A stretch of 64,000 bases of DNA from a bacterium (GTDB taxonomy: Bacteria > Patescibacteriota > Minisyncoccia > Phycocordibacterales > Phycocordibacteraceae): contig JBBCGK010000001.1 of NCBI GenBank assembly GCA_037200965.1, forward strand, positions 384,001 through 448,000, written 5' to 3'. The notes beneath the pieces are model-generated. The model saw only the letters and a list, made by a program, of their open reading frames with translations. It was not told the DNA's origin and did not search any database. Both the position numbers and the translations under genes were made by a program. Position 1 is the stretch's first letter. Each line of letters starts with the position of its first letter. Of the stretch, positions 9,585 through 27,237 are shown piece after piece.

Positions 9585-10852
9585 AAAGATTCCGAAATAC
9601 TCCGCTCGTGCGGCTTCTCGAGCGCTATACCAAAACCGATATAACCTACCTCGCGTCAGGCGGTTTCTGGCTGTCGCTTGATCAGGTAGCGACGGGGCTT
9701 GCCGCGTTCCTGCTGGCGATCGCGTTCGCGCATTTCGTCCCGAAGGAAACGTACGGAACCTACCGGTATCTTTTGTCCGCGTTCTGGGTACTGACCGCCT
9801 TTTCCCTCACCGGCCTCCCTACCGCGCTTTCCCAGGCGGTCGCCCGGGGGCGCGAGGGGGTATACCGTTCGTCATTCGCGACGAGCCTCGCATGGGGCCT
9901 GCCGTTTGGCGTTATCGCGCTTGGCATAAGCGCCTACTACTTCGTGAACGCGAACGCGCAATTCGGGTACGGGTTCCTCATCATCGCCGTTCTCGGTCCC
10001 CTCATGCAGCCCGCGTATTTGTTCGGGTCGTATCTCATCGGCAAGAAAGAGTTTCGTGTGGTCGCCATCTCGGGCGCGATATTCGCCGTTGCGCCAGCCG
10101 CCGCGCTTTTCGCGACCATGTTCGCGACGCAGAGTCCGCTCGTATTTCTCGTTATCTATCTGCTCAGCAGCGTTGTTACGGGCTTCGCGCTCGCGGCATT
10201 CACGTATATCAGGTACCGTCCGAACCGCGTGAACGATCCGGAATTCCGGGCGCTCGGCGCGCACTTCAGCGTCATGAATCTCCTCACGACGCTCGCGGGA
10301 CAGGTTGATAAGCTCGTCGTCTTCCATTATCTCGGCGCGGTCGAGCTGGCCGTCTACGCATTCGCCACCGCTCTTCCCGAACAGCTTAAGAACGTATTCG
10401 GCGGCGTCTCGACCCTGGCGCTTCCCAAGTTCGTCGCGCGGCCCTTTGAAGAGGTGCGGGCGAATTTCTGGAACCGCCTGTGGCTTTTGACCGCGGGCCT
10501 TGCGCTCGCGGCGCTTGCCTATGCGGCGGCCGCACCGATGCTCTTCCACATTTTCTTTCCGACCTATGCCGAAGCCATCTTCTATTCGCAGGTGTACGCG
10601 CTCGCGCTCGTTCCGATCGGGAGCGCCCTTCCCTCGACGCTCCTGCAGGCCCAGGAAGCGAAGCGGGAACTCTATATCCTCAATATTGTGTCCCCTGTTT
10701 TCCAGATCCTCGCGCTCGTTCTTCTTACGAGCATGTACGGCCTTATAGGCGCCATCGCAGCGCGCATCGCGGGACGGGTATGGACGTTCGCCGTGAGCGG
10801 CGCGCTCCTTGAAGCGTATGCGTGGCGCAGGAAGCGCTTCTCGGGCGCATAG
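9581..10852 (+). CDS. Wzx-like polysaccharide/oligosaccharide flippase (MOP superfamily, Polysacc_synt)
   Basis: 423 aa with 12-14 TM helices and the typical Wzx N-terminus. ATGA overlap with the preceding gene. Confidence 0.6.
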   Translation: MKRFRNTPLVRLLERYTKTDITYLASGGFWLSLDQVATGLAAFLLAIAFAHFVPKETYGTYRYLLSAFWVLTAFSLTGLPTALSQAVARGREGVYRSSFATSLAWGLPFGVIALGISAYYFVNANAQFGYGFLIIAVLGPLMQPAYLFGSYLIGKKEFRVVAISGAIFAVAPAAALFATMFATQSPLVFLVIYLLSSVVTGFALAAFTYIRYRPNRVNDPEFRALGAHFSVMNLLTTLAGQVDKLVVFHYLGAVELAVYAFATALPEQLKNVFGGVSTLALPKFVARPFEEVRANFWNRLWLLTAGLALAALAYAAAAPMLFHIFFPTYAEAIFYSQVYALALVPIGSALPSTLLQAQEAKRELYILNIVSPVFQILALVLLTSMYGLIGAIAARIAGRVWTFAVSGALLEAYAWRRKRFSGA

Positions 10853-10855
10853 CAT

Positions 10856-11464
10856 ATGCTTATGTTCAATTTCCTCAGAATCCGCATATTCGACTTCCTC
10901 AAGAAGAGGAATATGGACCGGGTGTATCAACGCGGCGGCATGTGGGGCCGGGAGCAGGGCGTAGCGGATATCAAAGCCGCCATCGGACTTATAAACAGCC
11001 GGCGCTATGCCCGCTGCCTTGACCTTGGCACGGGAAGGGGCCAGTATGCGGAAGAAGCCGCGCCCCATTGCGGAGAGGTCCTGGCAATCGATATTTCTCC
11101 GGAAGCTGTCGAACGCGCGAAGGAGCGGCTCGGACATATTCCGAATATCCGCTTCTCGGTTGCGAATCTGCGCACATTCGGATCCTCCGAACCTTTCGAT
11201 CTCGTCATCCTCGGGGACACCCTGTATTATCTCGGCGATCTCCGCTTCCCGCTCGAATTCCGGAAGGCCATAGCGAATATCGTACGACTCGTCGCTCCCG
11301 AAGGACGCATCCTCATGGTGAATTATATTTCGCCCGGGCGGAGCGAAAAACAGCTGCGGGAATATGCGGCCCTGTTCCAGGCCGAAGGAATGCGCATTGA
11401 GCATAACGATATATTTTCAGACGGCCCGAAGCGGTGGCTTCAGACCGTGCTCGTGCGGAACTGA
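10856..11464 (+). CDS. SAM-dependent methyltransferase (NodS-like)
   Basis: 202 aa with motif I (LDLGTGRGQYA) and LAIDISPEAVERAKERL...LVAPEGRILM. Confidence 0.6.
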   Translation: MLMFNFLRIRIFDFLKKRNMDRVYQRGGMWGREQGVADIKAAIGLINSRRYARCLDLGTGRGQYAEEAAPHCGEVLAIDISPEAVERAKERLGHIPNIRFSVANLRTFGSSEPFDLVILGDTLYYLGDLRFPLEFRKAIANIVRLVAPEGRILMVNYISPGRSEKQLREYAALFQAEGMRIEHNDIFSDGPKRWLQTVLVRN

Positions 11465-11494
11465 CAAAACGCCCCCTTCGGGGCGTTTTGTCAG
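11461..11494. terminator. bidirectional intrinsic terminator: 14-bp perfect stem CTGACAAAACGCCC / GGGCGTTTTGTCAG
   Basis: Perfect inverted repeat with a 6-nt loop between convergent genes 10856-11464(+) and 11514-12797(-). The stem carries its own U-tracts in both orientations. Confidence 0.7.
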
Positions 11495-11513
11495 TCCTTC
11501 AGAATCCGCCCGG

Positions 11514-12797
11514 TTATTCCGGATACTGATTCCCGGCTCCTCCGTTATAGAGTTCGGCTATTTCGCCTGCGGTGAGAGCCCGGGACCAGACGCCGCACTC
11601 GTCCTGCAATTGGTCCCCGGAGATATTGCCTCCGGCCTGGTACCCGAGCCCGAACGCCGTGGAGCTGTCGTTCTTCGTTTCCGCTACGGTTCCGGTGCCG
11701 ATGCCCGCGCCGTTCACATAGATCGTTCCCGTCGTTCCGCTCGCGGTGGCGGCGATGTAATACCAGGCGCCGTCCGAAAGCGTCTGGGGGATGGTAACTT
11801 GCTCGTTGCTTGAGCCGTTGGTGCCGAAAAACAATGCGCCTGTTCCCCCGGCATTTGCATATGCTAGACGGTACGAATTCGCATCAGACGGCCCGCCCCA
11901 CTTCGCGAGGATCGGATACATGTCCGGCGGCTGCGACCCGAATTTGACCCAGCACGCGAGCGTCATGTCTCCCGTCACGTCGAGCCCGTTCTGGGTTAAG
12001 TCGTCGGCGGTGAAATAATGCCCTGCCCTGCCCGCGCCCGTAATCCGGGCGGCATTATGAACGAGGCCTGGCGCGTACACGGTGCCGTTGTTTGCCAACG
12101 TATTGCCGCCGACCGAATCGATGGCATCGCCGCCCGTCTCGTCGAGTTTCCAGTAGGAAACGAGCGAGCCGTCCGAATACGCGGCAGGCACCGGAGCGGG
12201 CGGAGTATCATCGGGAGGAGTATCAGGCTCGTCGTTGCCGCCCCCATCGCCTTCATCATCGTCGTTCTCGTCATCGTTCCCTCCCGAACTGCCTCCGCCG
12301 GAACTATGATGAGAAGAATGGTGGGTAATAATGCGGCCGGAGGTTGACGCAGGTTTCGGAGCTCCGTATCCGAGCGCATAGGAACCTAAGTAACGGGCGC
12401 CGTCATACAGAAACGTAAACACATCGGCACTCCCCGCGGCAGCGCTTAAGGTCGGCGCTTCGCCCCCGAGCCACAGGATCGAACCGGGCCATGCGACGGT
12501 ACGGTTTCCGGACGCATCCTGGTTGAGGATAAGCTTGTATTCGCTTCCCGGCTGCGCGCCTCCGAACGCCAGGCCGATATCGCTCGTGATGAGGTTGAGC
12601 AAATGCACGTTCCCCGTATTCCAGTCGATCGTAAGCGACGAGGGAATCACGTCGGTAACTATCTTTTGCTGGGAGGGCGAAGTGGTTCCGGCGGCGAATA
12701 AGGAAAGAGCGTACGGCGGCTCCGCCGCGAGCGCTGCCGAGGGCAGAGCGAATAAAAATGCCGCTACCAGGAGCGGAACGAACGACGTATGTCTCAT
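11514..12797 (-). CDS. secreted LamG/concanavalin-A-like lectin domain protein with an acidic low-complexity linker
   Basis: 427 aa with a signal peptide (MRHTSFVPLLVAAFLFALPSAALAA) and a mid-protein HHSSHHSSGGGSSGGNDDENDDDEGDGGGNDEPDTPP linker. The C-terminal motif DGAWYYIAATASGTTGTIYVNGAG is typical of Laminin_G_3. Confidence 0.55.
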   Translation of the reverse strand: MRHTSFVPLLVAAFLFALPSAALAAEPPYALSLFAAGTTSPSQQKIVTDVIPSSLTIDWNTGNVHLLNLITSDIGLAFGGAQPGSEYKLILNQDASGNRTVAWPGSILWLGGEAPTLSAAAGSADVFTFLYDGARYLGSYALGYGAPKPASTSGRIITHHSSHHSSGGGSSGGNDDENDDDEGDGGGNDEPDTPPDDTPPAPVPAAYSDGSLVSYWKLDETGGDAIDSVGGNTLANNGTVYAPGLVHNAARITGAGRAGHYFTADDLTQNGLDVTGDMTLACWVKFGSQPPDMYPILAKWGGPSDANSYRLAYANAGGTGALFFGTNGSSNEQVTIPQTLSDGAWYYIAATASGTTGTIYVNGAGIGTGTVAETKNDSSTAFGLGYQAGGNISGDQLQDECGVWSRALTAGEIAELYNGGAGNQYPE

Positions 12798-12841
12798 GTG
12801 CGAGGTCTTACTTAATAAGTAAGCGCAACACCTCGGAAAAA

Positions 12842-12847
12842 ATTATA
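12842..12847 (-). promoter_or_regulatory. putative -10 (TATAAT on minus strand) for the LamG gene
   Basis: The minus strand reads TTTCAT-N18-TATAAT about 45 nt upstream of ATG 12797. A 17-bp palindrome (12807-12823, CTTACTTA-A-TAAGTAAG) sits in the predicted 5' UTR. Confidence 0.3.
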
Positions 12848-12897
12848 TTCGTTACCCTGTTTGAAATGAAATATCGGGCGTGTGGATATCCGCCGTT

Positions 12898-13800
12898 TTA
12901 GATAAAATATTGCTGAACGGATGCGCGGATGGAGTCGCGCATCGTAACAAACTCGGGATATTGGTAGAAGAAAAGTATCTTCTGGTCTTTTTTGAGCGTA
13001 CCGGCAGGCTTCGCCCGAAGCACGAAGTCGGTGAACGATTCGGCGATGTCTTCCTCGGGACCGCTCGCGCCGTACTTGGTGGTGAAATCGTCGAGGTGCC
13101 GGTTGTAAAACGCGGGCGTCTTCCCTTTCTCCCGCGCCTCGCGCGCGTCCGCCACGTCGCCGGCGCTCCAGAAAGCTTTCACGAACGCGTCGAGATACGA
13201 ATCCTTTTTGGTGCACCCGGCAAGAGAGAGATACCGCCCTGTTTTGGCGCAATAGCGCGGACTCTTTTTCTTGAATTCGACCTGATCCTTATCGAGCGTG
13301 AGGAGATGCGTGTATTCGTGCGTCAGGATGATGGCGGCGTCGCGCACCCATGTCCGGTTCTCGAAGCTGGACGCGTTCGTGTTCACGGCGAGCATCCACG
13401 ACGGCTGCTTGTTGCTTATGCGCGTCACGAACGCGAGCACGGGCTCGTGCGGGAGATTGTAGGTAAGGTAGACGCCGATATGCTGGTAGGTGAAGTCGGT
13501 CCCCGCGATGCCCTCGAATATGTCCCAGACTTTCTGCTCGTTGGTGTCCGTGTTCCTCGTCCACTTGTAGTTCTTATACAGCCGCTGGTTCGCGACCCTG
13601 AACACGTTCACGATGTCCTCTTCGTCATACGGCACTTCCCTGCTCACCTCATTCCCGATGGGAACGTCGAGAGAGGAACGGTCGAACGACCATTCGGTAT
13701 TGGCTGTCGGGACGGCCTGGACTGGCGGGGCCGCCTGGGCGGGCAGCGCCATAAGGAGCGCGAACGGCAGAAGGAGGGCGCTATAGAAAGCCTTTCTCAT
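12898..13800 (-). CDS. secreted putative zinc metallopeptidase (HExxH: HEYTH)
   Basis: About 300 aa with a signal peptide (MRKAFYSALLLPFALLMALPAQA) and an HEYTHLLT motif. The start is chosen at ATG 13800, 7 nt downstream of a TATAGT; the track start at 13809 is a GTG. Confidence 0.5.
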   Translation of the reverse strand: MRKAFYSALLLPFALLMALPAQAAPPVQAVPTANTEWSFDRSSLDVPIGNEVSREVPYDEEDIVNVFRVANQRLYKNYKWTRNTDTNEQKVWDIFEGIAGTDFTYQHIGVYLTYNLPHEPVLAFVTRISNKQPSWMLAVNTNASSFENRTWVRDAAIILTHEYTHLLTLDKDQVEFKKKSPRYCAKTGRYLSLAGCTKKDSYLDAFVKAFWSAGDVADAREAREKGKTPAFYNRHLDDFTTKYGASGPEEDIAESFTDFVLRAKPAGTLKKDQKILFFYQYPEFVTMRDSIRASVQQYFI

Positions 13801-13893
13801 GCCGAACACTATATACCGGGCTGTGGGCGAAATGAAGGCGCGTCTTGCGGAAACGTTAAAGCGTAAAGGAATACGATCGACTGCTAGAAGCCA

Positions 13894-13920
13894 CTAGACG
13901 CTAAAGGCTGTATACAAGCC
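13894..13920. repeat. 27-bp direct repeat, copy A (24/27 identical to 15333-15359)
   Basis: Copy A is ctagacGctaaAGgctgtatacaagcc and copy B is ctagacActaaGTgctgtatacaagcc. On the minus strand copy A encodes only ...GLYTAFSV*, a remnant of the last 8 codons of an immunity-like gene homologous to the 15333-15542 gene. Confidence 0.6.
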
Positions 13921-14335
13921 GTATTGGATCGGTAAGCTATTTCAGTGAACTTTTACATCTGGAAAGTATTGAGTATTTGGTAGCAGAAAACCGCCTTTCA
14001 GCGGTTTTCTGGGAAGGTGTGGCCGTAATGCGCTGTTTGGTCTTGCCTTAACTCAGTCATTCCTCTGACCTCAAGCTCTCATCGTAGGACAGCTTTTTCC
14101 AAGTCCCCTATTTCTTCTTACGCTTTGTGTCGCCAAGGGCGGCACCTGCGACTGACTTCTGGACTGTACGCTTTTGCGGCTTCTTCAGCAACTTCGATGC
14201 CATACTTGCCACACGTTTGCTCGTGTTTCCCATGATAGTGCTTGCCGAGGAGGATTAGTAGAAGTGACCACCTTCTATCCTCGGTCTCTACATTTTACTC
14301 TTGTAAGAATTTACAGCGAGGTGGATAACTGATTC

Positions 14336-14869
14336 CTACAGGAATGCGATGAAACCCAGTAAACCAAGTCCTACCGCGAGAAGGATGAAGGTTGGAACCA
14401 CACTGAAATTAATATAGCGTCTCTCAGATTTCCTTAGCTCGTCAACAGACTCAAACTGCTGTAGTTTCGGATTCAGAATATTTTTCCTTGAATATACATA
14501 CCTGCCCCGATTCCATGATAGACGTCTCCCATGTCTAAATGTAAAGATGATTGCAAAGAGCGATGCAAGAAACATTGCCAGAGTTAAAAGACCGAAAAAC
14601 AGAGTCCATATACCTTCAAAACCATCTGTATTGATTAGCTTATCCGTCACTTCAAAATAAAGGTAGGTTATGACATATACAATGAGTATGTCAGGCAGCT
14701 TCCTTAGTGAGATATATGCTATGTATCCGTACCCAAAGGGAGAGATGGTCCATCCTTTAATATATTTCAGATCATTATCTGAAAGCTGATTCTCATTTCT
14801 TACCTGCTTTCTTTCAAACCATGTAAAGCTTGACAGGTATTCGCGAGTCTCCTTAAATCCAAATTTCAT
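14336..14869 (-). CDS. hypothetical membrane protein in the AT-rich island (orphan immunity-protein candidate)
   Basis: 177 aa, 3-4 TM helices, low-GC codon usage unlike the host; lies between the two 27-bp repeats. Confidence 0.45.
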   Translation of the reverse strand: MKFGFKETREYLSSFTWFERKQVRNENQLSDNDLKYIKGWTISPFGYGYIAYISLRKLPDILIVYVITYLYFEVTDKLINTDGFEGIWTLFFGLLTLAMFLASLFAIIFTFRHGRRLSWNRGRYVYSRKNILNPKLQQFESVDELRKSERRYINFSVVPTFILLAVGLGLLGFIAFL

Positions 14870-14973
14870 AACCTGCTTAAATTCACTTCACTATAATAAA
14901 TCCTTGTCAGGATTAATTCCGCTAAGATTAATTTCCTCTAGGTCAATCTGAAAAGCTCTTGCTTGCTGTTGCA

Positions 14974-15309
14974 TTAGAGAAATAATCTCATATACAGCCA
15001 TCTGGTAGCCTCTGTCATAGTCTGTAGTCTCCGTATTGATTTTCTTATTGGAATTTCGCCAAGTTTGTATTCAATAATGTCGCCAGTACCTGGAAGTGCA
15101 AATTCCTCAAGTAAGAATCGAGGAATATAGTGATGATTCGATTGTTCGTAATCATTGATATAAACTCCTTTTTGTAGGATTCCATATATATAAAATACTA
15201 CTTTAGATAAAAGACGACTTCTTATCCTCCTATTTAGCATTACCATGATTAGCTTATTTGCTAATCTAAGTCTCGCGATGTTTATACGCTTTACTAGCAC
15301 CGATATCAT
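14974..15309 (-). CDS. hypothetical protein in the AT-rich island (possibly a truncated orphan module)
   Basis: 111 aa, AT-rich, no recognisable motif; the start is uncertain. Confidence 0.3.
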   Translation of the reverse strand: MISVLVKRINIARLRLANKLIMVMLNRRIRSRLLSKVVFYIYGILQKGVYINDYEQSNHHYIPRFLLEEFALPGTGDIIEYKLGEIPIRKSIRRLQTMTEATRWLYMRLFL

Positions 15310-15332
15310 TAAGTAGGGACTGTTAGGTCTTT

Positions 15333-15359
15333 CTAGACACTAAGTGCTGTATACAAGCC
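15333..15359. repeat. 27-bp direct repeat, copy B (stop codon plus 24 nt at the 3' end of the 15333-15542 gene)
   Basis: See copy A. A local tandem duplication tacaagcca/tacaagcc sits next to it. Confidence 0.6.
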
Positions 15360-15542
15360 ATACAAGCCAATAACTATAAAGAATAGAGCGGATAATCTGA
15401 TCATTACCAGCATCCACTTTGGTTCTTGATTATTTTTTATAGAATAGACACTGCGTGTAAAATTCCAAATTACACCAGGATTTACAATCGATAGGAGACC
15501 GGCGATAAGAAAAATAGAATTTAATATTATTTGAGAAGTCAT
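15333..15542 (-). CDS. small 2-TM membrane protein, putative cognate immunity protein of the RHS C-terminal toxin
   Basis: 69 aa with two hydrophobic helices. It starts 4 nt after the RHS stop codon, and the region is AT-rich like the toxin tip. Confidence 0.55.
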   Translation of the reverse strand: MTSQIILNSIFLIAGLLSIVNPGVIWNFTRSVYSIKNNQEPKWMLVMIRLSALFFIVIGLYGLYTALSV

Positions 15543-15546
15543 ATAG

Positions 15547-18500
15547 TTATCTGTTATTTTTAACCTTATTTTTTGTCTCGGTCGTTGTTGGCTTCGTTGT
15601 AGCTGGTGTTGTCGGAGCAGGCGCGGTTTGAATCATACTTCCAGGAATGATTGGGACATGGACTGTATAGGTTTGCGATACTGCTGCTCCAACGCCAATT
15701 TGCAGGTTATGACTGCTTGAAACATCTTGTTTTGGACCTGTAGCATTAGTTCCATCCTTTACGTTAACAGTTGCTGATTTCGAGTATTTATACCCCACCC
15801 CTACTGCGCCGCCCACACTTTGTTCAACCTGCACCTCAGCGTTTTTTGGCATAGAACCTGATGAGAACCCTCCACCTATCTTTGCTTCCGCTCCAAGCGA
15901 AGGTCCTCCGCCGGCAACTGCGTTAACTCCTTGGTCACTTGCTTCAAAACCTATCTGCACATTGAAGAATCCATATGTTAGACCTCCATTGATATAAACA
16001 TACCAATTACCAGACGGATCCTTATTAATTATTGGATTATTTCGGACATAACTATAGCTATTCAAAGTTTGAGGATCCATCAGAATCTGATTCAATTCTT
16101 GCTGTGTTAGTTCCTTTACCTTCTTTGCATCTCCCATAGCCAAGAAAGATGGGTCTTGTGATAGAAACTGTCCACGTCCCCCGTCGTAATAACGTGCATT
16201 TAGATACGACAAATCAGACTCGTCATCATGGAACTGCCCGATGAAAGTCCGCCCGAGATCGACGGCTCCCGCATCGACCCTCTCGCTCCCGTACGGATAG
16301 TAGTCGAGGGTCTTCGCAAGCTGGCCCGCATCGTCCGAGACGACGTTCGTCGAGCCCAGGTGGTCGGGATGCATATAGCTCGTGGTGGTGGCGGAGCCGT
16401 TTCCTTCGATCGCGGCGACAAGCCCGTCTCCCGCCCAGATATACGCCGTAGTGGTCGCGCCTTGTAGTTCGAAGTATTTATTCGGGTACAGAGTGGCGAT
16501 GCCGCCAGAAACCTTCGCGGCCCTGTTGCCGACATGGTCATAGGCATAGGTGGTGGTCGCGGACCCATCACTTGAAGCGGCGAGGCGGTTGCGGTAATCC
16601 CAGGCGAACGAATCGGGACCGTGGGCGACGACGTTCCCGTCGTTGTCGTAGGAGAGGGTCGTGGACGCGACGGAGGTCGGCGCATGGGGATTCGCGTAGC
16701 CGGTCCCGGCATAGGCATAGGAGCCCTGGCCGGACTTGCCCGTAAGGTTGCCGATGGCGCTGTAGCCGTAGGTCTCGCGATACGGCAGAGATGCGGCGGC
16801 GGTCGTCGAGGCGACCGTCAGGCGGTCGAGATCGTCATAGGCGAACACCGCGCTTTTCGCCGCCTGCGTGTCGGAATAGTCATCGATGCCGGTAACATTC
16901 CCCACGGCGTCATAGGTGAAATAGATGTCCTGGATCGTCGTACCCGACGGCGGCGTTCCGATCACGTAGCTTGCGGCGGCGCTCCAGTCGCTGTCCACGT
17001 CGTGGTCGTCCCATACCCGCATCCGCCAGTAGTACGGGATGCCAGCCGCAAGCGCGTCCCCCGCATAGGTAATGTCCTCCGTGCGCGTGCCGGGGGCGGT
17101 GGAGCTCGCAAACGGCGCCTTCGCGCTGTCCCAAACCGGAGCGCTCCAAGCGCCCGTCGAGGTCGCCACCTGTATCTGGAAATACCGCGCGGAATCGCCG
17201 GAGTCCGGATCGGCATACACCGCGGAGAACTCGGGGAAATAATCCGTGATCCCGGCCGGGTTCGTAAGCCCTTCGGTCAGGAGCGAGGCGGGCGCGCCCG
17301 GCGGAAAGGACACGGGAATCTCGAAGCTCGCCACGGAACTCCACTCGCTTTGCGTATCGGCATCCCAAAGCTTGATCCGCCAATAATACGGCGTGGACGA
17401 GGCGAGGGCCGGTCCCGCGTATGAGATGTCCGGTATGCGCATGCCGGACGGCGTCGAGCTTGCAAGGGCCGTCATGCCAGTGTCCCAATAGACGCTTGAG
17501 AACGCGCTTGAGGCGGCGAGCTGGATCCGGTATGCGAGGGCCAGATCGCCCGCGTCCGCGTCCGTAAAGAGGGCCGAAAACTCCGGCGTAAGGTCGGTGA
17601 CGTGCACGGGATCCGTCTGCCCTTCGGTAAGAAGGGCCGTCGGCCCGGCAGGAGCCGTGTCGTAGACAACGACGAGCTTCGGATCGTGGCCCGTACCCGT
17701 ATCGTCCGCCGAAGCGAAATTCGCGACGAGTTCGGTCGCGTCGGTGGGAGCGATATTGTTGAAGTCGTTATACGTCCGGACGGAAAGCTTCGTGACGCCG
17801 GTCCTCGAAATGGAAGCCAGCCCGTTCGCGTTAAGCGCGATCGGTTCGTACGTGTTGCCGGCATACGTTCCGTCGCTTACGCCATAGGACGTGCTGCCGA
17901 TCATGTCGAAGTCCTGGCTTACGAGGCTCGCAGCGGACGAAGGCGAAGAAGAAGCGACATAGAGCCGTTTCTCGGAGCCGCCCGCCGTGACGCCGGTCAT
18001 GTAAAGGCTGAGGGTCGCGTCGATGACCGGAACGCTGTCGGGAAGCGAGGACGTGTCGAAAAGAAGGAACCCGCGCCTGATGCCGTAGTCAAGCGCCCCG
18101 GAAGCGACCCCGAGCTCGTCGCTCACGATGATCTCAGCAGCGTCGGAATTGGCGTTGATACCGTTCGTCGCGTTATGAACCGAGTTCCAGTTCGAGCTGT
18201 GATCCTTATACACGTATCCGTCGACCGACGACGTCTCGGGGTCAGGGTCGGGATAGAACGTACCTGTGTCCGCGCGCGCTCTTTTGGGGAACAGGAAGCC
18301 GACGATCGCTTCAAGGATGCCGGGGCTCCCGCCCTGCGCCCGTTTCTGGGCTTCATAGGAGTCCGCGGTGGTGATGCCGTAATCGGCGACCCACCACCCG
18401 CCTTTTTCGTCTTCGTAATACTGGGGATCGCCGGAAACGATTTCGGCGACGAACGTGTTCGGCTTGTCGGTCGCGAAAACGCGCGCGTGCTTGGTTCGCT

Positions 18501-21500
18501 GGCTTTTAATCTCTCCTTTCACCGCCACGCCCGCTGCCTTTGCCCGCGCCCGGGTCTCCTCGCTTGCCGGAAGATCGTCCACGTTCTCGTCCGTCCGGTA
18601 GGCATAGCGGACGATGCCGTCCGAAATTTCCCTGGTGCCAAGATGCCGGTCAACCGGCGCGCGCAACCGGAGCTCCGGCGCGTCGAATGGAAGCGCCTTC
18701 AGGGAAGCGTACGAGTCCCCGTCCGGTGCCGCTCTCTCATCCGTCGTGGTCGAGGCCGTTTCGCCAACTGCCGCTTCCGGAACGAGCGATTCCCCGAGAG
18801 GCTGCGTAGTCGAGGCCGCACGGGACTCCGTTTCCGGAACCTCCTCCGTCGTAGCGGCTCCTTCTTCCGGCGAGATCGCATCATGCCCGTCGAGATCGGA
18901 AGGAACGATCGGCTCGACGGACGCTTCTTCGCCAGCCTCTTCCTGGCCCATACCCAAAAACGCGAGCAGATACGGACTGTTCGACGCAAGCGCGAGACGG
19001 CCGTTTCGTATGCCAAGCAATTTCCCGAAAGCGCCCGCCTGCTCCGAGTCTTCGCCATCTCCATCCGTGCGGAGAGAATCTCCCGCCTGGGGAAGGACCG
19101 TGCGGATGTTCGTGAGCCGATAGAGCTGGTCCGCCGCGTAGGTGTAGGAACTCTCGGTTCCGTTCCCCAGCGCCGCATACTTGACCTTCCCGGTCGGCGC
19201 ATAATCGAAGTCGCTCACGACATCGGCAAAAGTCCCCGCTTCTCCCTGCCGCTGTGCGATCCTCTCGAGCTGCCCGGCGCTGTTGTATGTGTACCGGGCC
19301 TGTATCCCGTTCGGATATCCGAGCGTCGCAAGGTTCCCGAGCCGGTCGTACCCGTACCGCGTTATCGCGGATACGCCGCCGATAGTGTCGGTTTCCGTCT
19401 CCATCCGCCCGAGCGGATCGTATGCGAAAGCCGCCGTCGTTTCGGTCGTCGATGCCGTGCAGAGAAGTCCCTTTCCTTCCGTACAGGCGTCATAGGTATA
19501 GGCGACCTCGATACTTGGGCTCCCGGCGAAATCTTCGGCGAGGGGCCGGTTGAGATCGTCATAGGTGAATACCGTCGTCTGCCCCTTCGGATCGGTCGAG
19601 GATGCCAGATTCCCGGAAGCATCGTAGTTGTATGACCAGATGCCGTAGGTCGCGTCCGCGCCCGCATGGAGGTCTGTCGCGCTCAGGCGGCGGCCGAGGC
19701 CGTCATAAGCAAAGTCGCGGATATTCCCCTGCGCGTCCGTTATCTTCGTCAGGTTCTTATTGCCGTCGTACTCATACGCGGTCGTCTGCGAGCTCCCGCC
19801 GACATGCTCGACAACTGACGCCAAATTCCCGTAAGCATCCTTGACGAGATCCTTCGCGCGCCCGAGCGCGTCGGTGACGGTCGTTTTCCAGTCGTCATAG
19901 GCGTATTCCGTCTCCCCGACGGCGTTCTCGACCGAACTCACGCGCTTCAGCGGATCGTACGCATAGCGCGTGCGAAGCGGGAGGGCGGGCGGCGAGCTGG
20001 TGCCGGTGAAACCGGTCCCGGAGGCGAAGTAGGGCTGGGATTCGCTTACGAGAAGCCCGCGTCCGTCGTACGCGAACGTGCGTACCGCGTACCGGTTCGA
20101 TCCTTCGGCTTCGGCAAGCTCTTCGACTTTCCTGCCGAAACCGTCGAAGTACGTATAGGAATCGGCCGAAACGGCGTCGTCGAGATAGTCGGTCCGCTTG
20201 GCGCGGCGCGGCATCCCGGTATCGGTATAGGCATACGCGCTTTTCATAACCAGCGCCGAAGGCTCCTCCGTGTCCGGCTGCCACTCTTCGAGCACCCGGT
20301 CGAGCGGATCATACACGGTATGGTACGTCCGGCCGTTCGGATTCGTCGTCTGCCGCGGCTTGCCCGAGGAATAGTCGTAGAGATACGCGGTGCTCTGCCC
20401 GAGCGCATTGGTAGTCGTCGCCGGATACAAGCCATAGGGATCGTACTCGTAGATCGTCTGCTTATCGCGCGGATCCTTTTCGGTGAGTACGAGCCCGCGG
20501 GCGTCGTAGGTTTTTTCGGTATCGATCGTCGTCGAAGCCGCGATCCATGACTCCTGCTTGGTCAGGTTCCCCCTGTTCAGTGAACCGAAAGAAAGCGCGT
20601 CATAGTAGTTTTTCGTCTCCCGCACCGTCGAGCTTGCCTGATCCGTACGCGTCTCTCGCGACAGAAGCGAGAAGGGCGCGGTGGAGCTTGCCGCGTAGGC
20701 ATACGCGGTCGTGAACTTGTCCGTGCCGGTATCGGCAAACGAGCCGTCCGCGCCCGCATTCACCCTTCCCCATTCGACCTTCTGCGTCAGGTTTCCGGCC
20801 CCGTCGTCATACGCGTACGTCTCGGCCTTGTCCGCATGGTCGGAATCCCCGTCGTAGTCGAGCACCGTCATTTGGGTCTTCCTGACGAAGTCCGCCTTCC
20901 CGCCCCGGTTATAAGTTTCCCATTTGTCCACTTCAAGCGAATACAGATGCCCCGCGTCGTCGTACGACTCGCTGCGGTACGCCTTCCCGATCTTCGACTG
21001 GTCGTCGAGATATTCCCCGGTCGAGGTCGCCGAGGCGTCGCCCTGATGGAAGAAGGTTTTCGTAACGTTCCCGGCGGCATCCGTCTTCGTGGTCGTCCCG
21101 AATCCGGCGATGCGCCGGTCGAAGGGGCTGCCAAAATAATACCTGCCGCCCGCATACGCGTAGGAATCGGTCGAAGTCGCCCCGATACCGGCATACCTGC
21201 TTATGCCCTCCGCAGTCTCGAGGTTCACCGGAAGCCCGGGATTGAGCATGGCACCGCCCGCGCCCCGATAGCTTGCGGAAGACTTGTACGACGCGGTAAT
21301 GGCCCCGCCCGCGGGCTCGACGACGCGCGTGAGCAGATCGGCCATGCCTCCGGTGCCGAGATAGACGAAGTTGTAGTTGTGATAATAGCTGCCGCCGATG
21401 GTACCCGAGGTGATGAAATCCACGGGGCCGTTCCCGTCCGCTTCCCCGATGCGCGTTCCGGCATCGAGACCGTTCGCAATGAACGGCGCGGGAAGCGTTC

Positions 21501-23451
21501 GGGCCGGATCGAGCGCCCATCCGGTACCCGTATTGAGGTAGACGGCGTTGCCCGACCATAAGGAATTCGCGCCGTTGAATTCGACCCATGAGTTATAGCC
21601 GATATCGACGAGGCCGTCGTTGTTGAAGTCGGCGAGACGGGTGCTCGTGCCGCCGCCGGGCGGGATTGGCACGGCCCACTCGGTGCTCGTGGCCCACCCC
21701 GACCCGGTGTTGAGATACACCATATCGGTCGGGCCGTACTGGGAATCGGAACCTCCGATAACGTCGTCGAGCCCGTCGTTGTTCACGTCGGCTATGCGCG
21801 CGCCGGTATCCGCCCGGAGCCGCGCGGAGAAAAGCACCGGTATCTGCCACGACGGCGCGTACGTCCAGCCGTGGCCGTTGTTGAGGTACACCTTCTTCGT
21901 ATACGTTACGCTCCCGCCGTTCGGATTGTTCACATACGAGCGGACGATATCGGCGGGGCCGTCGCCGTTCACGTCACTGAACCGGGTGCCGACGTCCTTA
22001 TTATTCTCCACAATCGTCTCCGGATTGGTCCATACGGTACTCGTCGCCCAGCCGCTGCCGGTATTGAGAAACACCGACGAATTACACACGAAATCCGGTA
22101 GCAGATCTCCGTTCACGTCCACTATGCGGGTCCCTTTGTCGCGTATCGATGAACTTCCGTATTCGGTGATGATGCAGGGAGCGTTCCAGAGCGTGTTTTC
22201 AGCCCATCCGGTACCGGTGCCAAGATAGGTATGCTTGGTTATCACGGGGCTGCTGTACTTGGATTCGACAAGGTCGGTGAGCGAATCGCCGTTCACATCG
22301 GCGAGCGTCACTCCGCGATCGCCCTGATCGTTCGTGAATTCGACCGGCACCGTCCAGCCGGGACTGGCCCACGCGGGACTCGATGTCGCATAGGAGAATG
22401 CGGCCGCGGGAAGCGAGATTACCGCCCCGCCGTCGTCCCGGCCCGATTCGGTAACGCCCGCGAGGAGGAGGCGCGAGCCGTTGTCGCCGTGCGTATAGGC
22501 GAAATCGTAGCTCCGAACCCACTCCCCGTTCACCTTCGTCCGTATCTGGTCGATCTTATACCGTGTCCGCACACCAAAGCCGCCGGGAGACGTCGTCGCG
22601 GTCGCGGTCGCCCGAAGGCTCTTCGCGAACTCGACCGAAAAGACTCCGGGCGCTCCGCCGCTCCCGGTATAGCGGATGGATTCGGGATAGATCTGCCCCG
22701 AATCTTTCGCGTAGCCGTACGTGACGGTATTTCCGTTCGCATCCATGGTTTCCTGGAGCATCCACTTGTACACTCTGCCCGAATCTCCCGGGTCATCCTG
22801 CCTGGCGGCGGTCGAGGTGCCGAACCTGTACACGACGCCGTTTTTATCCGTCACCATCCAGATGTTTCCGGCAAGCGCATAGCGCAGATAAGAACCGTCA
22901 TCGCTGCGGGCGAGAAAGACCGAGGAATCCGACGTGGTCGCAAGCTCTCCCGAAAGCGAGGAATAGAAATGCGGCGAGGTCGTGCTATAGAGATTTTGCA
23001 TCCCTTCGACGTTATACCGTTCTATGTACGGTATGGAGATATTCCAGCCGTATCCGAAAGCGCTCGCCTCGTCGCGGTCCTGACTCGAATAGGACAGGGA
23101 AAGATGCGGCTCCATACCGTTTCTTCCGGGCGGAACGGTGATCGCGTAGTCGTACGTAAAAGCACCTGTTGCGGCCGATTGATCGGCGCGGGTACGTTCC
23201 GGGCCGGAATCCCGCAGGTATGGCGGCAACTGATCATCGCCGTCCCCCAAACTGAGAGTCTGCGCTCCCCCGCCCTGAAGAAAGGCATCGCCCTCCGTAT
23301 CCGGCATAGCCGATGAAACATCCTCGGCCGGATCTTCCGACGCCGCCAAAACGGGAGCGCAGAAGAGCGGCGTGAAAGAAAGAATCAGCGATGCTGCCAC
23401 GAACTTGTTGAAGGATATTACCCAGGTCGCCCGTTTCGAGGGCTTTGCCAT
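15547..23451 (-). CDS. giant secreted RHS/YD-repeat polymorphic toxin: SpvB-like N-terminal domain, FG-GAP beta-propeller repeats, YD/RHS shell, RHS core, variable C-terminal toxin domain
   Basis: From N- to C-terminus the protein shows: a signal peptide (MAKPSKRATWVISFNKFVAASLILSFTPLFCAPVLAA); an SpvB/TcB motif (TGAFTYDYAITVPPGRNGMEPHLSLSYSS...GYGWNISIPY); at least 6 FG-GAP-like repeats (DVNGDxxxDxV); dozens of YD repeats (YEYDPYG, YAYDGRGLL, YNYDASGNL...); an RHS core end (ARYYDGGRGQFLSQDP...NSYSYVRNNPIINKDPSGNWY); and a ~150-aa Gly-rich tail. The start is chosen at ATG 23451, giving a good signal peptide; the ORF-track start at 23556 adds 35 aa. Confidence 0.85.
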   Translation of the reverse strand: MAKPSKRATWVISFNKFVAASLILSFTPLFCAPVLAASEDPAEDVSSAMPDTEGDAFLQGGGAQTLSLGDGDDQLPPYLRDSGPERTRADQSAATGAFTYDYAITVPPGRNGMEPHLSLSYSSQDRDEASAFGYGWNISIPYIERYNVEGMQNLYSTTSPHFYSSLSGELATTSDSSVFLARSDDGSYLRYALAGNIWMVTDKNGVVYRFGTSTAARQDDPGDSGRVYKWMLQETMDANGNTVTYGYAKDSGQIYPESIRYTGSGGAPGVFSVEFAKSLRATATATTSPGGFGVRTRYKIDQIRTKVNGEWVRSYDFAYTHGDNGSRLLLAGVTESGRDDGGAVISLPAAAFSYATSSPAWASPGWTVPVEFTNDQGDRGVTLADVNGDSLTDLVESKYSSPVITKHTYLGTGTGWAENTLWNAPCIITEYGSSSIRDKGTRIVDVNGDLLPDFVCNSSVFLNTGSGWATSTVWTNPETIVENNKDVGTRFSDVNGDGPADIVRSYVNNPNGGSVTYTKKVYLNNGHGWTYAPSWQIPVLFSARLRADTGARIADVNNDGLDDVIGGSDSQYGPTDMVYLNTGSGWATSTEWAVPIPPGGGTSTRLADFNNDGLVDIGYNSWVEFNGANSLWSGNAVYLNTGTGWALDPARTLPAPFIANGLDAGTRIGEADGNGPVDFITSGTIGGSYYHNYNFVYLGTGGMADLLTRVVEPAGGAITASYKSSASYRGAGGAMLNPGLPVNLETAEGISRYAGIGATSTDSYAYAGGRYYFGSPFDRRIAGFGTTTKTDAAGNVTKTFFHQGDASATSTGEYLDDQSKIGKAYRSESYDDAGHLYSLEVDKWETYNRGGKADFVRKTQMTVLDYDGDSDHADKAETYAYDDGAGNLTQKVEWGRVNAGADGSFADTGTDKFTTAYAYAASSTAPFSLLSRETRTDQASSTVRETKNYYDALSFGSLNRGNLTKQESWIAASTTIDTEKTYDARGLVLTEKDPRDKQTIYEYDPYGLYPATTTNALGQSTAYLYDYSSGKPRQTTNPNGRTYHTVYDPLDRVLEEWQPDTEEPSALVMKSAYAYTDTGMPRRAKRTDYLDDAVSADSYTYFDGFGRKVEELAEAEGSNRYAVRTFAYDGRGLLVSESQPYFASGTGFTGTSSPPALPLRTRYAYDPLKRVSSVENAVGETEYAYDDWKTTVTDALGRAKDLVKDAYGNLASVVEHVGGSSQTTAYEYDGNKNLTKITDAQGNIRDFAYDGLGRRLSATDLHAGADATYGIWSYNYDASGNLASSTDPKGQTTVFTYDDLNRPLAEDFAGSPSIEVAYTYDACTEGKGLLCTASTTETTAAFAYDPLGRMETETDTIGGVSAITRYGYDRLGNLATLGYPNGIQARYTYNSAGQLERIAQRQGEAGTFADVVSDFDYAPTGKVKYAALGNGTESSYTYAADQLYRLTNIRTVLPQAGDSLRTDGDGEDSEQAGAFGKLLGIRNGRLALASNSPYLLAFLGMGQEEAGEEASVEPIVPSDLDGHDAISPEEGAATTEEVPETESRAASTTQPLGESLVPEAAVGETASTTTDERAAPDGDSYASLKALPFDAPELRLRAPVDRHLGTREISDGIVRYAYRTDENVDDLPASEETRARAKAAGVAVKGEIKSQRTKHARVFATDKPNTFVAEIVSGDPQYYEDEKGGWWVADYGITTADSYEAQKRAQGGSPGILEAIVGFLFPKRARADTGTFYPDPDPETSSVDGYVYKDHSSNWNSVHNATNGINANSDAAEIIVSDELGVASGALDYGIRRGFLLFDTSSLPDSVPVIDATLSLYMTGVTAGGSEKRLYVASSSPSSAASLVSQDFDMIGSTSYGVSDGTYAGNTYEPIALNANGLASISRTGVTKLSVRTYNDFNNIAPTDATELVANFASADDTGTGHDPKLVVVYDTAPAGPTALLTEGQTDPVHVTDLTPEFSALFTDADAGDLALAYRIQLAASSAFSSVYWDTGMTALASSTPSGMRIPDISYAGPALASSTPYYWRIKLWDADTQSEWSSVASFEIPVSFPPGAPASLLTEGLTNPAGITDYFPEFSAVYADPDSGDSARYFQIQVATSTGAWSAPVWDSAKAPFASSTAPGTRTEDITYAGDALAAGIPYYWRMRVWDDHDVDSDWSAAASYVIGTPPSGTTIQDIYFTYDAVGNVTGIDDYSDTQAAKSAVFAYDDLDRLTVASTTAAASLPYRETYGYSAIGNLTGKSGQGSYAYAGTGYANPHAPTSVASTTLSYDNDGNVVAHGPDSFAWDYRNRLAASSDGSATTTYAYDHVGNRAAKVSGGIATLYPNKYFELQGATTTAYIWAGDGLVAAIEGNGSATTTSYMHPDHLGSTNVVSDDAGQLAKTLDYYPYGSERVDAGAVDLGRTFIGQFHDDESDLSYLNARYYDGGRGQFLSQDPSFLAMGDAKKVKELTQQELNQILMDPQTLNSYSYVRNNPIINKDPSGNWYVYINGGLTYGFFNVQIGFEASDQGVNAVAGGGPSLGAEAKIGGGFSSGSMPKNAEVQVEQSVGGAVGVGYKYSKSATVNVKDGTNATGPKQDVSSSHNLQIGVGAAVSQTYTVHVPIIPGSMIQTAPAPTTPATTKPTTTETKNKVKNNR

Positions 23452-23542
23452 TACGGGTATCGTAGCATCCATTATCGAGGGCTTGTGGATATCGGGAGAA
23501 TCGGAAACTTTCGTTTTTATTGACGATACGCAGCGCAACATA

Positions 23543-23557
23543 TATGATATTATCATA
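23543..23557. promoter_or_regulatory. 15-bp perfect palindrome TATGATA-T-TATCATA, putative operator of the RHH antitoxin operon
   Basis: Seen directly; lies 20-34 nt upstream of the antitoxin ATG and overlaps -10-like TACTAT/TATAAG hexamers. Confidence 0.45.
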
Positions 23558-23576
23558 CTATAAGTTAATACCCCTT

Positions 23577-23795
23577 ATGGCCACCGTCTCCGTACCCCTC
23601 AACGCCGAGCTTGAAGAGCGTCTGGATTTCCTTGTCGCGAGCGGCGTGGGCGCGAACCGCGCGGATGTCATGCGCCGCGGGCTTGAAAACCTGGCGGAAG
23701 AAGAGGCGATCAACGCCGTACTTAAGGCCGAACGTGAAGTGGCGGGCGGCAAGATACTGCGCGGGAACGCACGCAAAGTATTGCTTGGTCCGTAG
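23577..23795 (+). CDS. ribbon-helix-helix (CopG/ParD-like) type II antitoxin
   Basis: 72 aa: MATVSVPLNAELEERLDFLVASGVGANRADVMRRGLENL..., an RHH signature. Sits immediately upstream of a RelE/ParE-like ORF. Confidence 0.65.
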   Translation: MATVSVPLNAELEERLDFLVASGVGANRADVMRRGLENLAEEEAINAVLKAEREVAGGKILRGNARKVLLGP

Positions 23796-23801
23796 TCTTC
23801 T

Positions 23802-24062
23802 ATGCAGGTCGCGTTCGCACCCCAATTCAGGCGGCAATTCAAGAAGCTGCCGAAACCTCTTCAGGAAGAAGCGCTCGAAAAGATCGAGACCTTCGGGGAT
23901 GCCGGGAACCACGCGGCGTTGCGCGTTCATAAGCTTGGCGGGAAGCTTCACGGCCGCCTGAGCTTTTCGGTCAATTATCGGTATCGGATACTGTTTTTAT
24001 GGGAAGTTCCGAATAAATCAGCAATCCTGCTCGCCATCGGCGATCACGCCGTATACGAATAA
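23802..24062 (+). CDS. RelE/ParE-family type II toxin
   Basis: 86 aa; the C-terminus LGGKLHGRLSFSVNYRYRILFLWEVPNKSAILLAIGDHAVYE matches the ParE/RelE fold signature. Confidence 0.65.
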   Translation: MQVAFAPQFRRQFKKLPKPLQEEALEKIETFGDAGNHAALRVHKLGGKLHGRLSFSVNYRYRILFLWEVPNKSAILLAIGDHAVYE

Positions 24063-24066
24063 GCGC

Positions 24067-25182
24067 TTAGGGATCCTTGTCCTTCAGAGCCGCGATGATC
24101 CTTCGCGCGCGCGCAGCCCACGTATGCGAGGCGGCGAGCGAAAGCGCTTTTACGGACTTATCTCGTGCCGCCTGGGAATCGGCAAGCGCGTCCCGTATGC
24201 CAGCCGCAAGAGCTTCGGGATCGTCAGGCGGCACGAGATACGCGCTGTCGCCTGCAAGGACTTCCCGGATCGAGGGAAGATCGGACGCGACGATCGGCGT
24301 ACCGGAAGCGATATACTCGAAGAGCTTCATGGGCGAGGTAAAGCGGGTGGAATCCTCGTCCTTCCCGGAATTCGGCAGGACAAGGATGTCCGCGGCGCGA
24401 AGATAGACCGGAACGCCCTCGTGCGGCACGTGTCCGATTATCCTGACGTTCACCCTGCTTCCCCACTTCCCCCCGAATGCCTCGATATCTTCCGGCGTGC
24501 CGCCGAGAAATATGAAAAGCGCGTCCGGAACGAGGGCGGCGGCCTCGGCAAGCGCGGCGGCGCCCTTCCTCGGATAGAGATGCCCCGCATACAGCACGAT
24601 GCGCTTGTCGCGCGGGAATCCGAGCGCGCCGCGCGCCGCCGCGCGATCCGGTACGCCGTCAAACAAGCGCTCATCGACCGCGTCGGGAGCCACGACGATT
24701 CGCTCCGGGGCGACGCCCGCAGCCGCATACGCCGTTCGCAGCCCTTCCGATATGACGACAGTGCGAAGCGCCCGGCGGGCAACGATTTTCGAGACGAACG
24801 ACGGCCGCGCATGCGCTTCAAAAACGAGTCTCTTCCCGAGAAGCAGGTACTGCGCGAGCACGAGCGCATCGCGCGAATAGATGACGTCGGCGCCGCGAAA
24901 CGCGGGAAGCCAGCGGACTTTCTCGGAAAACCAGAGTGCGGAGACCAAAAACCCGAGCGGACCGGACCGGACGAAGTCCGGCGCTTCCAGGGTCGCAACC
25001 TTGAAGGAAGGACGAATGCCGTAGTACGCGAACGGGTCGGCGGCGAGATGATTGATGCGCAAAGGGATGACGAGCTCAAGGTCGACGCCCGCTTCCGCAA
25101 GCGCTTCGCACGTCTTCATGATCTGGAGGCCGTAGGCGCGCTCGGTCGGCAGGCGCGCATTCGATATATAGAGAAGTTTCAT
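24067..25182 (-). CDS. GT4-family (GT-B) glycosyltransferase
   Basis: 371 aa with the C-terminal GT4 signature (PNSGKDEDSTRFTSPMKLFEYIASGTPIVASD). Confidence 0.8.
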   Translation of the reverse strand: MKLLYISNARLPTERAYGLQIMKTCEALAEAGVDLELVIPLRINHLAADPFAYYGIRPSFKVATLEAPDFVRSGPLGFLVSALWFSEKVRWLPAFRGADVIYSRDALVLAQYLLLGKRLVFEAHARPSFVSKIVARRALRTVVISEGLRTAYAAAGVAPERIVVAPDAVDERLFDGVPDRAAARGALGFPRDKRIVLYAGHLYPRKGAAALAEAAALVPDALFIFLGGTPEDIEAFGGKWGSRVNVRIIGHVPHEGVPVYLRAADILVLPNSGKDEDSTRFTSPMKLFEYIASGTPIVASDLPSIREVLAGDSAYLVPPDDPEALAAGIRDALADSQAARDKSVKALSLAASHTWAARARRIIAALKDKDP

Positions 25183-26289: not shown

Positions 26290-27237
26290 TCGCACTGCAT
26301 ATCGAACACTCCCTAATACTAAGGAGGATATGCGCAAAGAACCCAGGGAAATCATCAGGAAATTGAAGAAGTCGGGAGGAAAGGTGCGCGAAACCGCACG
26401 GACACTCGGCATATCTCCGGGCACGGTGGTGTTCTGGAAGAAGCGAGCCCGGAGCATCCGGAGCCGGTTTGCGCTCTCGACGCGGCAGCTTGTCCGCAAG
26501 TCGACAAGACCGAAGCGTCTTCGCCGCAGGACGCTCTCGGGAGAGCGGGCTGAGGCGCTCTTGCGCCTGCGCGAAGAGAAAGGATACGGGGCGCGCAAGC
26601 TCAAAGTGCTGCTCGGCCTCTCCGAGCACCCGGCGACCATCCATCGCTTCCTCAAAGCGAAAGGTCATATACTGGAAGGCGCGTCATACCGACGGCCGAG
26701 ATATCAGGAGACCACGCATATGTATCTCAAGAACGTGACCGCGCCCGGGAAGCTTCAGATGGATGTGAAGTACGTGACGCCCGAGCTGTCGGGGCTCCCG
26801 CATACCCTGTATCTGTATGCCGTCATTGATATTTGGAGCCGATACAAAGCTGGCGTCATCTTCCCCGAGCTCGTGCAGGACTTCTCCATCGAGGCCCTGC
26901 GGACGGTTTCGCTGCCGTTCGTACCGGATTTCGTGCAGACCGACAACGGCCTTGAGTTCCAGAGCCGCTTCCGCGCCTTCGTGACTGGGGAACTCGGCTG
27001 GAAGCATCATTTCATCCACAAGGCGAACCCGAATGAGAACGCGGTCATCGAGCGGTCATTCCGCACCGACGAGGAGGAGTTCTTCTGGCGCTTCATGAAA
27101 AAGCCCGCTTCAATGGAGGACCTCAATGCCCAGTATCAGGCCTTTCTGCGCGAATACAACCACGAACGGCCGCACCTTGGCATCGAGCTCAAGACGCCGT
27201 ATGCTCGACTGCAAGAGTGTTCGATATGTTAGTGCGA
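26290..27237 (+). mobile_element. IS481-family-like insertion sequence (~948 bp) with 22/23-bp imperfect terminal inverted repeats and a probable 6-bp TTAAGG target-site duplication
   Basis: IRL is TCGCACTGCATATCGAACACTC (26290-26311) and IRR is GAGTGTTCGATATGTTAGTGCGA (27215-27237). Their reverse complements differ only by G vs AA. Flanking TTAAGG lies at 26284-26289 and 27240-27245. Confidence 0.7.
26330..27232 (+). CDS. DDE transposase (N-terminal HTH + rve integrase core), IS481-like
   Basis: 300 aa. The DDE triad context reads LYLYAVIDIWSR ... VQTDNGLEF ... AVIERSFRTDEEE. A canonical SD (AAGGAGG) lies 3-9 nt upstream of the ATG, unlike most host genes. Confidence 0.8.
   Translation: MRKEPREIIRKLKKSGGKVRETARTLGISPGTVVFWKKRARSIRSRFALSTRQLVRKSTRPKRLRRRTLSGERAEALLRLREEKGYGARKLKVLLGLSEHPATIHRFLKAKGHILEGASYRRPRYQETTHMYLKNVTAPGKLQMDVKYVTPELSGLPHTLYLYAVIDIWSRYKAGVIFPELVQDFSIEALRTVSLPFVPDFVQTDNGLEFQSRFRAFVTGELGWKHHFIHKANPNENAVIERSFRTDEEEFFWRFMKKPASMEDLNAQYQAFLREYNHERPHLGIELKTPYARLQECSIC

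Follow-up and report, generated by a model that had tools for sequence, protein, structure and literature searches.

The 64-kb window analysed here (the whole stretch of contig JBBCGK010000001.1 from 384,001 to 448,000, numbered from its first letter) carries on its minus strand a gene for a polymorphic toxin of the RHS/YD-repeat type (15547..23556, 2669 aa) and, downstream of it, a tract of small open reading frames (ORFs) in which a 27-mer occurs twice in the same orientation, at 13894-13920 (copy A) and 15333-15359 (copy B), in both cases among minus-strand genes. The origin of this repeat pair, and of the DNA in which it lies, is the subject of this report. In the 2669-aa product, Pfam and NCBIfam profiles recognize SpvB, FG-GAP and Ig_Rha78A_N domains, RHS/YD repeats (PF05593, 8 stretches, E 5e-35; TIGR01643 also matched) and, just before the variable tip, a Rhs-associated core domain (TIGR03696, scoring 55.3 bits where the cut-off is 32.5) whose DPxG-type motif reads NKDPSGN. 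An earlier inspection of the letters of the window (the sequence-only reading) had described a polymorphic-toxin locus, and correctly so, in that the region is the variable 3' end of an RHS gene.

The conserved core tail of this gene (DLSYLNARYYDG...NKDPSGN; 16006..16230, minus strand), delimited by the composition profile and by tblastn, lies in low-GC DNA. GC content is 61.5% in the RHS core vs 38.6% in the core tail, the drop falling at ~16225-16240, inside the reading frame and just before the LNARYYDG codons, and it remains low (39-42% in the layers distinguished below) from ~16230 to ~13880. The drop at ~16225-16240 marks the upstream crossover of the newest acquired block. The core tail itself is conserved in loci L003, L004, L005, L007 and L009, and it is after this point that the tips diverge. 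The tip now present in the window (15547..16005, minus strand, ~152 aa) is rich in Gly, Ala, Ser and Thr, ends in a Thr/Lys-rich tail and belongs to no known family; it has no match in Pfam, in PDB sequences or in plasmids, and no similarity to the tip of L007. The structure described for the window is found also in a contig of assembly GCA_015655515.1, at 99.97% identity. Judged by its nearest relatives and the names attached to them in the databases, the bacterium is of Patescibacteria type, close to Candidatus Adlerbacteria.

Starting 4 nt after the RHS stop codon, a minus-strand gene (15333..15542, read from 15542 to 15333) encodes a 69-aa hydrophobic protein that matches the DUF6199 family of small membrane proteins (PF19701; a score of 30.1 bits, above the cut-off of 27.7, over profile positions 2-62 of 64) and is like them in passing that cut-off, in its length and in its two hydrophobic stretches. 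No function has been described for the family, nor is it mentioned in the papers of the library that was searched. The nearest relative, P0012 (64% identity), is encoded in the RHS 3' region of L007, and its C-terminus (...YSLYKAFAG) shows that the protein end encoded by copy B is typical of the family. An exhaustive HMMER search with the 69-aa protein against 1.84 billion representative proteins returned one close relative and a few marginal ones, while look-up gave no exact record, a word-indexed homology search was empty, and PADLOC found no match for four small products of the locus. Because of the 4-nt spacing and the low-GC origin common to tip and gene, the 69-aa protein is presumed to be the cognate immunity protein of the present tip, a role assigned from its position. 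The pairing with a small membrane protein raises the possibility that the membrane is the target of the tip.

The two copies of the 27-mer are 24/27 identical at the coordinates given by the sequence-only reading, a result upheld by pattern search and shuffled controls. Allowing <=3 mismatches, a search with the pattern hit the window exactly twice and 100 shuffles not once. Comparison of all direct 27-mers against all others in the window yielded three pairs at >=24/27, the A/B pair among them, and 12 composition-preserving block shuffles of the window yielded none; the two further pairs lie within adjacent paralogous genes and within RHS repeats, respectively. The former, at 32694-32720 / 33818-33844, is the only other non-RHS pair at 24/27, and the adjacent ORFs that contain it (32478-33614 and 33611-34708) are probably tandem paralogues. 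The likeness of copies A and B extends over 45 nt at 76% identity (13879-13923 vs 15318-15362), with a longest perfect match of 14 nt. This extension adds one upstream codon (Y) and a 9-nt block, CTA[A/G]CAGTC, which ends 15 nt beyond the stop codon and is separated from it, in both copies, by six unrelated bases.

On the minus strand, copy A reads TAC GGC TTG TAT ACA GCC TTT AGC GTC TAG and copy B reads TAT GGC TTG TAT ACA GCA CTT AGT GTC TAG. They align in frame, stop on stop, with the likeness running on into the 3' flank; the three differences within the 27-mer comprise two synonymous changes and one conservative L/F exchange, and the retained coding part is identical at 27 of its 30 nt. 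Copy B (15318-15362) covers the end of the intact DUF6199 gene, namely its last 9 codons and stop codon, and a further 15 nt of 3' flank. Its 27-mer core had been taken for a stop codon plus 3' UTR, which is mistaken: it represents the last 8 codons and the stop of the 69-aa gene, 15333 being the last base of the stop codon. The parallel proposal that copy A derives from a truncated relative of the immunity-like gene proved sound. Copy A (13879-13923) is the stub of a second DUF6199-type gene, YGLYTAFSV* with 15 nt of 3' flank, truncated at its 5' end and homologous in its DNA to the intact gene behind the RHS tip, as a displaced immunity-gene relic should be. In its frame a stop codon stands 7 codons before GGC; the string TACGGCTTGTATACAGCCTTTAGCGTCTAGTGGCTTCTAGCAGTC is specific to the stub. 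The 57 nt upstream of the stub show no further decayed similarity to the DUF6199 gene in any frame. The intact gene, at 15351-15368 (minus strand), contains a perfect 9-bp tandem duplication (GGCTTGTAT GGCTTGTAT, encoding GLYGLY), of which the stub has one copy. We conclude, with a probability of roughly 60%, that the repeats are passive scars: two genes of the DUF6199 family, of which one is intact and the other has shrunk to a 45-nt stub, are homologous at their 3' ends.

Two other explanations of the repeats themselves have to be weighed at this point. A chance or convergent likeness between a gene end and unrelated intergenic DNA might be entertained, given that the match is short and, at the protein level, weak (9 aa, with a tblastn E of 0.38 in the window), but we regard it as extremely improbable: the copies agree in reading frame, in the position of the stop codon and on into the 3' flank, the stub lies at the boundary of the low-GC island, and the three pairs that distinguish the real window from its shuffles all occur in paralogous contexts. 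The second explanation holds that the 14-nt core common to both copies, GGCTTGTATACAGCC, which is a near-palindrome, acts as an attC-like or dif-like recombination site, or as a regulatory or RNA element, that delimits a cassette, consistent with the bracketing of DNA of foreign composition by the repeats. This we judge highly improbable. A common dispersed motif with no link to immunity genes would have refuted the sequence-only reading, but the 64-kb window has only 2 copies, and 14 further loci of related type were without one; nor does any copy stand at the ends of the homologous block of L003 described below, or any Rfam family match. Moreover, no recombinase-like gene lies closer than an IS3-type transposase at a distance of more than 11 kb, and copy B is ordinary coding sequence for a family-typical C-terminus. 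An integron-like system of site-specific cassettes was considered and rejected, no recombinase being found among the called genes of the locus and the motif being absent from the other loci.

The DNA between copies A and B is indeed AT-rich (39.9% GC vs 58% for the window), as the sequence-only reading says, and both ORFs assigned to it, at 14336-14869 (ORF177) and 14974-15309 (ORF111), are present in the ORF list. It is not, however, the single orphan-module cassette bounded by repeats that had been envisaged, but a composite with an internal junction at ~15031/15032. From 15031 to 13981 the window is 80% identical, over 1052 nt, to positions 9838-10888 of locus L003, which comes from another metagenome (and to which locus L018 is identical). 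The common block consists of the last 46 codons of a 74-aa gene, ORF177, a 41-codon ORF (ORF41) and a terminator-like hairpin, and in L003 it stands behind a different, intact RHS tip, the RHS genes of the two loci having only the short core tail in common at the DNA level. To this extent the serial replacement put forward in the sequence-only reading is borne out. In L003 the intact 74-aa gene directly follows the RHS tip, and the homology with the window starts only at 15031, exactly where the 74-aa gene is cut. What is left of this immunity-like gene in the window (14891..15031, minus strand) is its last 46 codons and stop, with 83% aa identity to the L003 product; this relic, which had gone unremarked, is truncated at the 5' end and homologous in its DNA to a gene behind an RHS tip elsewhere, again the signature of a displaced immunity gene. 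Its nonsynonymous and synonymous divergence from L003 (pN 0.10, pS 0.80) implies that the differences mostly accrued under selection, before truncation.

On the other side of the junction, the distal part of the newest DNA (15032..15332, minus strand) consists of intergenic sequence and a 5' fragment of a DUF4238-type gene (HHYIPRFLLEEF..., ~15138-15043), and accounts for most of ORF111. The match of ORF111 to DUF4238 (PF14022) is confined to profile positions 1-32 of 281 and falls below the cut-off (20.6 bits vs 27, E 3e-4). Since this match lies upstream of the junction and the 74-aa relic is read in another frame, ORF111 is a chimeric pseudo-ORF, in which an N-terminal piece of DUF4238 is continued into the relic in the wrong frame, not a member gene of that family and not the orphan immunity gene that it had been taken for.

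ORF177 (14336..14869, minus strand), a conserved membrane protein with three long predicted helices, has been carried over from the middle layer of the region. It is 79% identical at the aa level to its L003 relative, with a dN/dS of 0.076 indicating purifying selection, and an alignment of the family, which belongs to none in Pfam, displays the invariant motifs RKLPD and F.HG[RK]RLSWNRG, the second containing the polar HG[RK]RLSWNRG; an AlphaFold model was of low confidence (pLDDT 65.7), and Foldseek comparison with the PDB gave no meaningful match. Three other genomic contexts (L003, L004, L005/L006) have relatives placed two genes behind a large RHS gene; those in L003, L004 and L005 are 56-79% identical, and there the C-terminal ends of the RHS genes, and the small genes downstream of them, differ from locus to locus. 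The family is found also away from RHS genes, in contigs of Patescibacteria type: no RHS gene lies in the flanks examined in L011, L013, L014/L015 and L016. Of the five loci recovered by a metagenome scan with the ORF177 alignment, four (L011, L013, L014, L015) have no RHS gene in the examined flanks, and further contexts (L010, L016, L017) give no RHS linkage. The earlier proposal that ORF177 is an orphan immunity gene is not supported by this distribution, the protein neither covarying with a particular tip nor being specific to toxin loci. We describe it as a conserved RHS-associated membrane protein, for which an orphan immunity role is possible. In the fifth locus of the metagenome scan, the short contig L012, an ORF177 relative is preceded by two small two-helix membrane ORFs (346-782; 79 and 66 aa), and these in turn by a toxin-like C-terminal fragment; neither ORF matches DUF6199.

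The 3' end of the L003-type block (13981..14335, minus strand; L003 counterpart 10535-10888) contains ORF41, read from 14233 to 14108, with its non-coding flanks and the hairpin. The very basic 41-aa product (MGNTSKRVASMASKLLKKPQKRTVQKSVAGAALGDTKRKKK) differs from that of L003 by 1 aa (dN/dS 0.014), at a pS of 0.69 that places synonymous sites near saturation. Its non-coding flanks are conserved above the level of those sites (87/101, or 86%, on the 5' side and ~93% by count on the 3' side), and ~69 nt running from the last ORF41 codons to ~14057 (roughly 14125-14057) are identical in the window and L003. Apart from the hairpin, folding of the flanks is no more stable than that of shuffled sequences (z -1.4, -0.9). 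The hairpin, at 13985-14010, is kept in L003 at ~10860-10885 with an altered stem-loop (CCGC-TGAAAG-GCGG vs CCGCC-CAG-GGCGG), and just past it the window and L003 part at one and the same nucleotide (…TTCTGCTA), the DNA beyond being unrelated. In the window, alignment and three-frame translations set apart a further 57 nt (13924..13980) between the end of this homology and the stub. Neither Rfam, over 13700-15600, nor viral-contig scans with the repeat and with the conserved 3' flank produced a match, and a scan of 12000-25000 found no tRNA or tmRNA, so that the region is not a tRNA-targeted island.

The excess conservation of the flanks over synonymous sites, and the common 3' end in two unrelated RHS loci, invite a more active interpretation of this block, in which ORF177 and ORF41, with the terminator, would form an end-module dedicated to the 3' side of RHS operons in bacteria of the candidate-phyla-radiation type, and the conserved non-coding end, together with short gene-end repeats like the 27- to 45-mer, might provide downstream anchors for exchange of tip/immunity cassettes by double crossover. 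If true, the locus would represent a cassette system and not a set of accidental scars; we consider this very unlikely.

The analysis establishes the homologies, junctions and compositional boundaries set out above, and the purifying selection on ORF177 and ORF41; the order and mechanism of events, and the parts played by toxin and immunity genes, we infer as follows. At the same probability of about 60%, the region from ~16230 to 13879 represents three layers of horizontally acquired low-GC DNA, left by successive tip replacements. Each layer would have entered by a crossover in the conserved RHS core tail combined with an illegitimate join downstream, deleting the 5' part of whatever had been acquired before. 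Of the oldest layer only the stub (13923-13879) would survive, as the end of an earlier DUF6199-type gene that abuts DNA of host composition; it was either made in this genome or brought in, already truncated, with the second layer. The second would be an L003-type module (tip, 74-aa gene, ORF177, ORF41 and terminator), of which 15031-13981, and perhaps the DNA to 13924, remains, the tip and the first 28 codons of the 74-aa gene having been lost when the third layer arrived. That current layer (16230-15032) would have supplied the core tail, the tip, the DUF6199 gene and the first codons of the donor's neighbouring DUF4238-type gene. In the arrangement so produced, the RHS protein would be the vehicle that brings its tip to competitor cells, with the 69-aa membrane protein as the safeguard of the producer, while ORF177 and ORF41 may be co-transcribed by read-through as far as the hairpin.

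A rival history dispenses with placing one gene family at the locus twice. An ancestor with the order RHS tip, DUF6199 gene and HExxH-type flanking gene (see below) might have taken up a pre-formed 1.4-kb composite bearing a copy of the DUF6199 3' end, for example as a circular intermediate, by one crossover in these 30-45 nt of homology, which would thereby have been doubled into direct repeats on either side of the insert. Direct repeats flank the foreign segment exactly, and for rhs tips there is a published proposal of circular intermediates inserted by homologous recombination (PMC2935791). Nevertheless, an insert that is itself composite, with a junction at 15031 and two truncated genes, requires earlier illegitimate events in any case, and no recombinase gene is found in or beside the segment. 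With a longest perfect match of only 14 nt, within 45 nt at 76%, the A/B repeats are a poor substrate for homologous crossover. Furthermore, had the copies been identical at the start, the stub would have diverged by 11-24% and yet escaped deletion from a small genome, which is too divergent for a recent event. We hold a single insertion across the repeat to be unlikely.

The layered history is not free of difficulties. It requires closely related DUF6199 genes in both the first and the third layer, a coincidence unless the module is common, and the protein search described above returned a single close relative. No related genome with the intact arrangement of the first layer was encountered in the genome and metagenome scans made. 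Classical orphan rhs-CT/rhsI modules are lacking: the window holds no orphan rhs core fragment, unlike the classical Rhs orphan arrays. The identical end nucleotide of the L003-type block in both loci is unexpected for random illegitimate joins, and the toxin and immunity activities are putative.

Displacement of C-terminal ends, with retention of orphan modules, is the published model for enterobacterial rhs genes, and the orphan-module phenomenon is described for both Rhs and contact-dependent growth inhibition (CDI) loci (PMC2935791, Jackson et al. 2009; PMC3150448, Poole et al. 2011). The window is like the orphan rhs-CT/rhsI arrays of that literature (see also PMC3967940, Koskiniemi et al. 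2014) in having a conserved core followed by a variable tip and a small downstream gene, in the foreign composition of its DNA from inside the core tail onward, and in the stacking of relics of earlier modules downstream; its sister loci L003 and L007 have textbook orphan core-tail fragments. It differs in that its displaced layers are without core fragments and tips, so that all they have left is the relic of 46 codons, a pair of accessory genes and the 45-nt stub, a state that heavier deletion here, removing displaced core fragments, would explain. The host is Patescibacteria-like and not an enterobacterium, and, as far as the locus is annotated, no type VI secretion system genes (vgrG/hcp) adjoin the RHS gene; the SpvB and FG-GAP domains suggest to us a layout like that of Tc-toxin B/C components. 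Orphan cdiA-CT/cdiI modules of CDI loci follow the same logic, with tips exchanged at a conserved motif and downstream immunity genes retained, but they use another delivery protein, and the system in the window has neither a VENN motif nor cdiB.

The phenomenon is a known one, Rhs C-terminal displacement, in a less-studied, Patescibacteria-like lineage. The case extends the tip-replacement dynamics of enterobacterial Rhs and CDI systems to a small genome of this kind, with donors of much lower GC, adds a candidate toxin/immunity pair (the Gly-rich tip and the DUF6199 protein), and draws attention to a conserved block, ORF177/ORF41, that repeatedly accompanies RHS genes. It leaves current understanding unchanged, its value being that of a well-resolved example with testable candidates. 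Of the loose ends, the ORF41 region holds the most interest, its non-coding flanks exceeding synonymous sites in conservation.

Tblastn with the core tail gave one match in the window (16215-16006) and a second core tail in each of L003 and L007. In L003 the additional copy follows the same terminator, as an orphan core tail (NARYYDG) with an SLT (lytic transglycosylase) tip and then a 161-aa gene (11060-12415 in all), and in L007, the locus of P0012, the orphan core-tail fragment, found further downstream, is frameshifted. Immediately behind the DPxG motif, the RHS proteins of L003, L004 and L005 have in common a hydrophobic segment of ~75 aa (…GEIIPLL..AWAAAEIGLSAYDAY…GGFAAGLALPGGGYG…), which is missing from the tip in the window. 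On the downstream side, the variable region is bounded by a gene of host composition (12898..13809, minus strand, 57.8% GC) for an HExxH-type putative lipoprotein. A scan of species-representative genomes with this flank gave one distant gammaproteobacterial match and no syntenic relatives. In the Candidatus Adlerbacteria genome L009, however, an RHS gene and an HExxH homologue bracket a different low-GC variable region, a synteny which implies that the site is old and its content exchangeable. Two neighbouring genes may be noted in addition: in L003, a gene resembling those of cyclic-oligonucleotide-based antiphage signalling systems (CBASS), encoding a DncV-like nucleotidyltransferase with AGS_C, precedes the RHS gene (521-2455), and in the window the IS3-type transposase gene (26330-27232, plus strand; HTH_Tnp_1 and rve_3) lies ~2.8 kb beyond the start of the RHS gene, inside a polysaccharide-biosynthesis cluster.

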